This document shows, piece after piece, positions 11,098 through 11,525 of a stretch of DNA of 64,000 nt; position 1 is the stretch's first letter, and every line of letters begins with the position of its first letter. The stretch is from Escherichia coli (GTDB lineage: Bacteria; Pseudomonadota; Gammaproteobacteria; Enterobacterales; Enterobacteriaceae): the NCBI RefSeq assembly GCF_046105845.1, contig NZ_CP151004.1; one strand, given 5' to 3'. The position numbers and the translations under genes were made by a program. The notes under the pieces are model-generated. The model did no database searches. It was not told the DNA's origin and worked only from the letters and a program-made list of their open reading frames with translations.

Positions 11098-11525
11098 TGC
11101 TATCAATTTCCTGCCTGTTTATACCCGGTCATTGCAAGGTGAAAACCCTGGTTACCGACGTCTTTAGATAAATCTTACGGTATAAATAGCACTTTTGCCT
11201 GATTTGAAATTGATACCTTTTTAATGGTCACCTGGATAAAAATAATTCATTGATATTCAAATTAATTTTCTACAGGAATGCAGAGGCGGCGGGAAGATAT
11301 GCCCTTAATGCCACTGAAAAACCACATAATCTGTACAGCAATAAAAGTCACGGCCTAATCTGGCTAACAAACAATCAATTGTGATATAGTTCACAAAATT
11401 AATGAAACAAACAGAGTGTTTCATTTTTGTGTCCTGCAAGCCCCGCGATAGCCAGAGTGTACCACGCCTCCCGTGAACAACGCCGCGCTGTCCAGGGCAT
11501 CGGCTCTTTTCAGAGGAATTGTTTG

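Follow-up and report, generated by a model that had tools for sequence, protein, structure and literature searches.

The pdeC–yjcB spacer and its inverted repeat

The window, that is the whole 64-kb stretch of DNA that was analysed, is a segment of the Escherichia coli chromosome in which pdeC (minus strand), yjcB (plus strand) and ssb (minus strand) follow one another. The annotated genes include soxR (minus), soxS (plus), pdeC (minus), yjcB (plus, 11526–11807), ssb (minus) and uvrA (plus). The spacer between pdeC and yjcB, approximately 420 bp in length (419–420 bp), was 100% identical to that of strain 19KM1831 and was found in 5425 of 5426 complete genomes. The features of the region are listed in Table 1.

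A first-pass annotation had drawn attention to a perfect palindrome with a U-tract in this spacer, about 100 bp upstream of the yjcB start codon and with no plus-strand gene upstream of it. An inverted-repeat search recovered a 100% complementary inverted repeat with 9 nt arms and a 7 nt gap, and the 8 nt arms described earlier (atgaaaca/tgtttcat) make up its core. The right arm does run into TTTTT (11424–11428), and the repeat lies 101–125 nt 5′ of the yjcB ATG at 11526. The gene upstream, pdeC, is indeed on the minus strand, but a plus-strand transcription start is found 3 nt upstream of the repeat, at 11398. Of dinucleotide shuffles of the 419 bp spacer, 2% contained a perfect inverted repeat with arms of 9 bp or more and a 3–12 nt loop, while the pattern TGAAAC-N5–13-GTTTCA occurred once in the 64-kb window against an expectation of 0.03. 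As it is rare by both measures, and as the arms are invariant or almost so across seven divergent E. coli lineages, the palindrome is not due to chance; it is genuine, and the yjcB promoter and leader have conserved it.

Table 1. Features of the yjcB promoter, leader and 3′ end (window coordinates; positions with a sign are relative to the yjcB start site)
Feature	Position	Strand	Basis or remark
MarA/SoxS box gcaataaaagtcacg	11338..11352		−60..−46; same sequence as the MarA ChIP-seq site (PMC5684230)
−35-like hexamer CTAACA, weak	11364..11369	+	Predicted for the yjcB promoter (PMC3946193)
Perfect CRP core TGTGA-TATAGT-TCACA (TGTGATATAGTTCACA)	11380..11395		Centre at −10.5
Extended −10 element TGaTATAGT	11382..11390 (hexamer 11385–11390)	+	Within the CRP box spacer; predicted −10 in PMC3946193
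yjcB transcription start site (A)	11398	+	Cappable-seq 4275169(−) in MG1655 (PMC12987492); base checked
yjcB 5′ untranslated leader, 128 nt	11398..11525	+	From start site to annotated ATG
Left arm/half-site AATGAAACA	11401..11409		+4..+12; inverted-repeat search
Centre AACAGAG, 7 nt	11410..11416		Sequence variable, length constant within Escherichia
Right arm/half-site TGTTTCATT	11417..11425		+20..+28; inverted-repeat search
T-run after the palindrome	11424..11428	+	Read from sequence
yjcB coding sequence	11526..11807	+	93 aa small membrane protein; RefSeq annotation of identical strain; relatives in 37 genomes
yjcB intrinsic terminator, bidirectional with ssb	11813..11837	+	Terminator scan; −17.8 kcal/mol, z −5.0; used as reference

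The palindrome was also considered as a regulatory site for pdeC, and this was rejected. The predicted pdeC promoter (TTTTCA-16-TATAAA, minus strand, adjoining the pdeC start; PMC3946193) is approximately 290 bp distant, and the palindrome therefore belongs to yjcB. Two further repeats were seen in the vicinity. An 11 nt inverted repeat with 91% complementarity, CTGTTTATACC (11115–11125) and GGTATAAATAG (11179–11189), lies around the predicted pdeC promoter region. At the other end of yjcB, an AT-rich perfect palindrome with arms of up to 9 nt (TTAAAACAATATAACCTATTGTTTTAA, 11872–11898) is located just 3′ of the stop codon of the minus-strand gene ssb, where it adjoins the bidirectional yjcB/ssb terminator. 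A Term-seq 3′ end on the ssb strand at this terminator is listed in the accessible part of the Adams 2021 tables (PMC7815308).

The yjcB promoter

The primary yjcB start site is 4275169(−) in MG1655, from a re-analysis of Cappable-seq data on antibiotic-treated cells (PMC12987492). Because the K-12 sequence and the window show no indels relative to each other in this stretch, and using the yjcB coordinates in NC_000913.3 (4274760–4275041), this start maps to 11398, the final A of CACAAAA. It follows that the CRP core is centred at −10.5, that the leader is 128 nt long and that the palindrome occupies +4 to +28.

The CRP core is the only one in the 64-kb window that matches at 10/10 positions, and it ends 5 nt before the palindrome (11395 and 11401, respectively). 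No further CRP-like core scoring at least 7/10 was detected in 11301–11525. The box was kept in every yjcB locus examined, including those of Erwinia and Serratia. In a 2007 PhyloScan study yjcB is among the top predicted CRP sites, yjcB was up in a crp deletion by both RNA-seq and qPCR in a 2026 study, and the 14 genes of the crp-KO i-modulon include yjcB (PMC6892915 supplement).

The −10 hexamer TATAGT lies 8 nt 5′ of the mapped start, and the RpoD-holoenzyme SELEX prediction for yjcB is CTAACA-15-TATAGT (PMC3946193). In related loci a CTGGC(G/T)AA(T/C)AAA block is kept in the −35 region. The CRP box spacer TATAGT is near-invariant in the Enterobacteriaceae, and in Erwinia and Serratia a −10 hexamer TATAAT or TACAAT abuts the left edge of the box, so that CRP overlaps the core promoter in both layouts. 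With its box centred at −10.5, over the −10 element, CRP acts as a repressor; it represses the yjcB promoter as this geometry predicts. A second promoter served by the same CRP box at −41.5 was considered and rejected, as an acceptable −10 hexamer is lacking around 11417–11427 and a promoter scan found none. Further upstream, gcaataaaagtcacg is given by ChIP-seq as the site for MarA in the yjcB<>yjcC spacer, and ChIP-exo lists yjcB among the targets of SoxS (PMC5684230). Published work thus covers the start site, the CRP site and the marbox. No account of the palindrome as a candidate operator was found in the literature searched, where none of the papers that mention yjcB describes a site at the palindrome.

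Conservation of the half-sites

A peptide scan using one genome per species yielded 37 yjcB loci, which range from Escherichia to Erwinia and Serratia, and 37 Enterobacteriaceae-type yjcB leaders were used to compare the half-sites. Most matches from a metagenome scan with a 16 nt DNA pattern were due to chance; of 80 loci that were read, the 14 encoding YjcB were added. One 9.5-kb contig (NZ_JAUFQN010000013.1), assigned to 'Flavobacterium paronense', encodes a YjcB with 100% amino acid identity to that of E. coli behind an E. coli-type upstream region; E. coli DNA has probably contaminated this assembly.

The left half ATGnAAC was found at an offset of 7±1 from the CRP box in nearly all 37 leaders, and the right half GTTTCAT was exact in 27/37. 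The half-sites are 9 bp apart in E. coli and 9–11 bp apart in 34/37 leaders. The fourth base of the left half varies (most often A, in 20 leaders, then T and C with 8 each, and G in a single one) and its partner in the right half stays T, so the central pair of the potential stem is broken in many leaders; one-sided changes broke the middle pair in 13/26 or 11/31 sequences in two comparisons. The centre is free to vary, being AACAGAG, AACAGAA, GATTTAG, CACTAAT or CAATAAT in the Escherichia species. A run of T residues comparable to the one in E. coli was present in 6 of the 37.

Of the 37 leaders, 18 carry an additional inner half-site, GAAACA, at the place of the Escherichia centre. It pairs with the right half described above to give a 6-1-6 palindrome, GAAACA-N-TGTTTC. 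Genera that still have this inner half also retain the outer left half. In Escherichia the inner half-site has been lost, and both outer arms and the 7 nt length of the centre have been kept.

Outside this group the arrangement beside the CRP box was different. Four Erwinia leaders have another palindrome, (A/T)TGAC(C)-N4–6-(G)GTCAG, with an offset from the CRP box equal to that of the E. coli element; an inverted repeat is kept in this place, but not its sequence. Three Serratia leaders were without a palindrome beside the CRP box and had a strong G+C-rich hairpin followed by CTTTT just 5′ of the ribosome-binding site (e.g. CCTCATCTG...CAGATGAGGCTTTTG). In that lineage this hairpin may be a genuine terminator within the leader, or it may control translation.

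The palindrome as a candidate operator

The first-pass annotation had offered three readings of the palindrome: it could terminate a short transcript that is not annotated, act as an attenuator within the yjcB leader or bind a dimeric regulator. The last is the best supported. Half-sites that are conserved in sequence and fixed in place next to the CRP box, around a free centre and with one-sided rather than compensated changes, are the signature of a protein operator and not of a structural RNA. The inner 6-1-6 palindrome GAAACA-N-TGTTTC favours an operator too, because it leaves too little room for a normal RNA loop, and the arms are close to the consensuses of two known operators, as detailed below. 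We therefore give about an even chance to the palindrome being a DNA operator for a dimeric repressor, set on the initially transcribed region (+4 to +28) beside a cAMP-CRP site that covers the −10 element.

Several observations weigh against this reading. CRP centred at −10.5 can explain repression by itself. Pairing as RNA is favoured by double changes, few in number, at outer and inner pairs of the potential stem, and by mismatches, of which the G·U type outnumbers the A·C type by 18 to 6. Finally, the Erwinia palindrome (ATGACC..GGTCAG) at the same offset is unexplained by one fixed transcription factor.

Were the operator reading correct, CRP would occlude the −10 element of the yjcB promoter, and a second protein on the palindrome would contact CRP, strengthen the occlusion and block RNA polymerase. 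The promoter, activated by SoxS and MarA, would then be held off at high cAMP until the ligand of the second protein released it.

CytR and KdgR as candidate regulators

The arms matched the CytR octamers AATGCAAC/GTTGCATT at 14/16 positions; in the same comparison the promoters of nupG, udp, deoC, cdd and cytR in K-12 scored 11–12/16. No other match of at least 14/16 to the octamers occurs in the 64 kb (0.2 expected), and the sole perfect CRP core is only 5 nt away. CytR operators require a CRP site within 5 nt, and the spacing of their half-sites is flexible, at 0–5 bp or about one helical turn, with 9 bp in nupG (Sernova and Gelfand). The yjcB element resembles the CRP–CytR cassettes of nupG, udp, deoP2, cdd, tsx and cytR in that a strong CRP site lies no more than 5 nt from inverted octamers like AATGCAAC/GTTGCATT and in that the orthologous sites are highly conserved. 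The octamer spacing of 9 bp is the same as in the nupG cassette, and the distance between the centres of the CRP site and the operator, measured from coordinates, is 25.5 bp compared with 19.5–32.5 bp in nupG and udp. In addition, the cdd promoter carries a GTTTCA half-site, and the sequence ATGCAAC-TTTGG-CATTTGCGTTCAT of Atlantibacter leaders is similar to the udp operator of E. coli, ATGCAAC-G-CATTTGCGTCAT.

The yjcB arrangement also departs from these cassettes in several ways. The usual second flanking CRP site was not found within 11301–11525, and the cytR promoter is to date the one known case of an arrangement with a single CRP site. At yjcB, CRP covers the −10 element, at −10.5, as a repressor, whereas in the known cassettes it is an activator that is normally silenced by CytR. 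The candidate operator is downstream of the start site, and its half-sites carry A or T where CytR sites usually have C or G, a deviation at a core position (TGAAA for TGCAA, and TTTCA for TTGCA). The published search for the CytR regulon, which does not include yjcB, demanded two CRP sites 10–40 bp apart (Sernova and Gelfand) and would have missed a one-CRP cassette for that reason. No paper linking yjcB to CytR regulation, or naming yjcB together with KdgR, was found in the literature searched.

CytR is the leading candidate for the protein that would bind the palindrome, albeit a tentative one to which we assign a minority share of the total probability. On this proposal, for which we hold the same limited expectation, yjcB would be an unrecognised member of the CytR regulon, with a one-CRP cassette placed over the core promoter in which CRP (at −10.5) is purely a co-repressor and CytR at +4 to +28 adds sensitivity to nucleosides.

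A KdgR-type regulator of the IclR family is the second candidate after CytR, again judged by resemblance. The KdgR box consensus is AAATGAAACAnTGTTTCATTT, with halves AAATGAAACA and TGTTTCATTT, and differs from that of CytR by one base per half. The palindrome arms matched the two KdgR halves at 19/20 positions with the 7 nt gap allowed, and both the KdgR box and the related box of E. coli PlaR (YiaJ) are similar to the palindrome in this pairing of two 9–10 nt halves. As at KdgR boxes, the site is near a promoter that also carries a CRP site. The differences are that the halves are 7 nt apart in Escherichia instead of the 1 nt between 10-mers in KdgR boxes, the canonical spacing being present in non-Escherichia yjcB leaders, and that the KdgR consensus fixes an A where the outer left half of yjcB leaders tolerates any base. 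Expression of yjcB also does not follow the KdgR regulon. The kdgR-deletion i-modulon (deletion-1) gains kdgK, kdgT, kduI and kduD but not yjcB (PMC6892915 supplement), which is weak evidence because yjcB is otherwise repressed. PlaR was rejected, as yjcB/yjcC are absent from its reported SELEX targets. CytR was ranked above KdgR because CytR, with its flexible linker, fits both the outer pairs, at 9–11 bp, and the inner pairs, while a rigid IclR dimer leaves the outer pair of Escherichia unexplained.

The resemblance to KdgR boxes also allows the palindrome to be read as a relic. The ancestral site would have been an IclR-family box, GAAACA-N-TGTTTC, of which Escherichia lost the inner left half, leaving an outer palindrome with little or no function in E. 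coli. The near-identity of the arms to the KdgR halves fits this, as do the scores at canonical spacing. The yjcB leaders of Citrobacter, Enterobacter, Leclercia, Kosakonia and other non-Escherichia genera reach 16–17/20, like the E. coli KdgR operators of kdgK (15), kdgT (17) and kduI (17 and 19), whereas the E. coli leader is at 15/20, its right half being perfect and its left half random-like (5/10). That yjcB is not derepressed on loss of kdgR in the i-modulon data would be expected of a relic. Set against this, the outer arms are perfectly or almost perfectly kept in the E. coli phylogroups, E. albertii, E. whittamii and the cryptic clades while the centre has diverged at 5–6 of its 7 positions, which argues for continued selection on the pair of half-sites 7 nt apart, and the retention of the outer left half in genera that still have the inner half is not accounted for. 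We regard the relic as distinctly improbable.

Terminator and RNA stem-loop

The palindrome could instead act in the transcript. As an intrinsic terminator or attenuator, its hairpin and U-run would stop a fraction of transcripts at about +31 to +33, either in the yjcB leader or as an unannotated short RNA. It does have the form of one, a stem-loop followed by UUUUU within a 5′ leader and downstream of a genuine start site. Compared with Rho-independent terminators and leader attenuators, it is poorer in G+C and less stable; only two of the nine pairs of the stem are G–C and its predicted energy is −6.9 kcal/mol (z −1.5, with 17/200 shuffles as good), compared with −17.8 kcal/mol for the true yjcB terminator. 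A terminator scan found the latter, at 11813–11837, and did not call the palindrome hairpin. The T-run is missing from 31/37 related leaders and is already eroded within the Escherichia clades (CATTTCGG, CATTTTGG). Published data place a start 3 nt upstream of the palindrome, and the accessible part of the Adams 2021 Term-seq tables (PMC7815308) lists no 3′ end at 4275000–4275499, although very short products, of about 30 nt, may escape such libraries. A terminator for an unannotated short transcript does not agree with these findings, since the sole upstream plus-strand start is that of the yjcB promoter, 3 nt away. The attenuator proposed as the other option was correctly placed, in that the element is in the yjcB leader, but the mechanism is unlikely because the T-run is found in 6/37 leaders while the arms are conserved. 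Termination in either form is very improbable.

The main rival to the operator is that the element acts as RNA, as a 5′-terminal stem-loop of the yjcB mRNA (+4 to +28) which, preceded by three unpaired nucleotides, would protect the message from 5′-end-dependent decay by RppH and RNase E. Hairpins of the ompA type are 5′-terminal stem-loops that stabilise the mRNA, and the yjcB hairpin is like them in beginning 3 nt from the mapped 5′ end (start at 11398, stem from 11401). It is present in both the minimum-free-energy and the centroid folds of the whole leader. Most Enterobacteriaceae leaders are predicted to form some hairpin here (about 20 of 26 fall at −4.7 to −11.7 kcal/mol), and in Atlantibacter and several Erwinia the predicted hairpin has a different sequence. 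Within Escherichia the arms stay complementary while the loop changes freely, and the excess of G·U-type mismatches on the sense strand (18 against 6) is in the direction expected of RNA. Covariation was weak; the score of 0.169, against 0.115 in shuffles, was reached in 1/500 shuffles, 77% of cells were paired and three pairs, outer and inner ones, had double changes, a signal for which relatedness alone may suffice. On the other side, the stem differs from ompA-type hairpins in being weak and AU-rich (z −1.5, or z −2.8 with a shorter segment and mononucleotide shuffles), apparently kept by sequence rather than by compensation, and broken in many relatives. The middle pair is lost one-sidedly in about one-third to one-half of leaders, and several genera lack a stable hairpin (−1.7 kcal/mol in Enterobacter kpr-6 and −0.6 kcal/mol in Pseudenterobacter). 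The conservation of the arm sequence, with GTTTCAT in 27/37, is far above what a purely structural element needs, and the conserved inner GAAACA competes for the right arm with a loop of 1–3 nt. The fold of the whole leader was no better than those of shuffles (z 0.17), and Rfam gave no match to the leader at E≤1, with weak matches only over the end of yjcB and its terminator. A 5′ stabilising stem-loop is a serious alternative, if one that we consider rather unlikely. The two could coexist, because any transcribed palindromic operator also folds as RNA.

Implications for yjcB regulation

The product of yjcB is a small membrane protein that is conserved; SoxS and MarA activate the gene, and its expression is up in crp mutants. 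A CRP box over the −10 element with a conserved operator adjacent to it would, if shown, make yjcB a gene that is off at high cAMP and on under oxidative or antibiotic stress, with a third signal modulating its expression. The identity of the third regulator would then be a handle on the function of yjcB. If it is CytR, the small CytR regulon would be extended with a new cassette geometry, in which there is a single CRP site and CRP is only a co-repressor, and a stress-activated gene under SoxS and MarA would be tied to cAMP and nucleoside signals. General principles would be unchanged, the refinement being at the level of the locus.

Other features of the yjcB leader

An open reading frame of 24 codons (MKQTECFIFVSCKPRDSQSVPRLP*, 11402–11476) begins in the left arm of the palindrome, with its ATG 4 nt after the start site. 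It is not conserved, having a stop at codon 5 in E. albertii and ATG-TAA in C. youngae, and is therefore probably not a leader peptide. The 8 nt sequence CAGAGTGT occurs as an exact direct repeat at 11412–11419 and 11453–11460, 41 nt apart. One copy spans the centre and right arm of the palindrome and the other is in the leader; the repeat could be due to chance. A block at about 11446–11500, CGATAGCCAGAGTGTACCACGCC...GCGCTGTCC, is common to Escherichia and Citrobacter, not extending beyond them, and forms the main internal helix in the fold of the leader.
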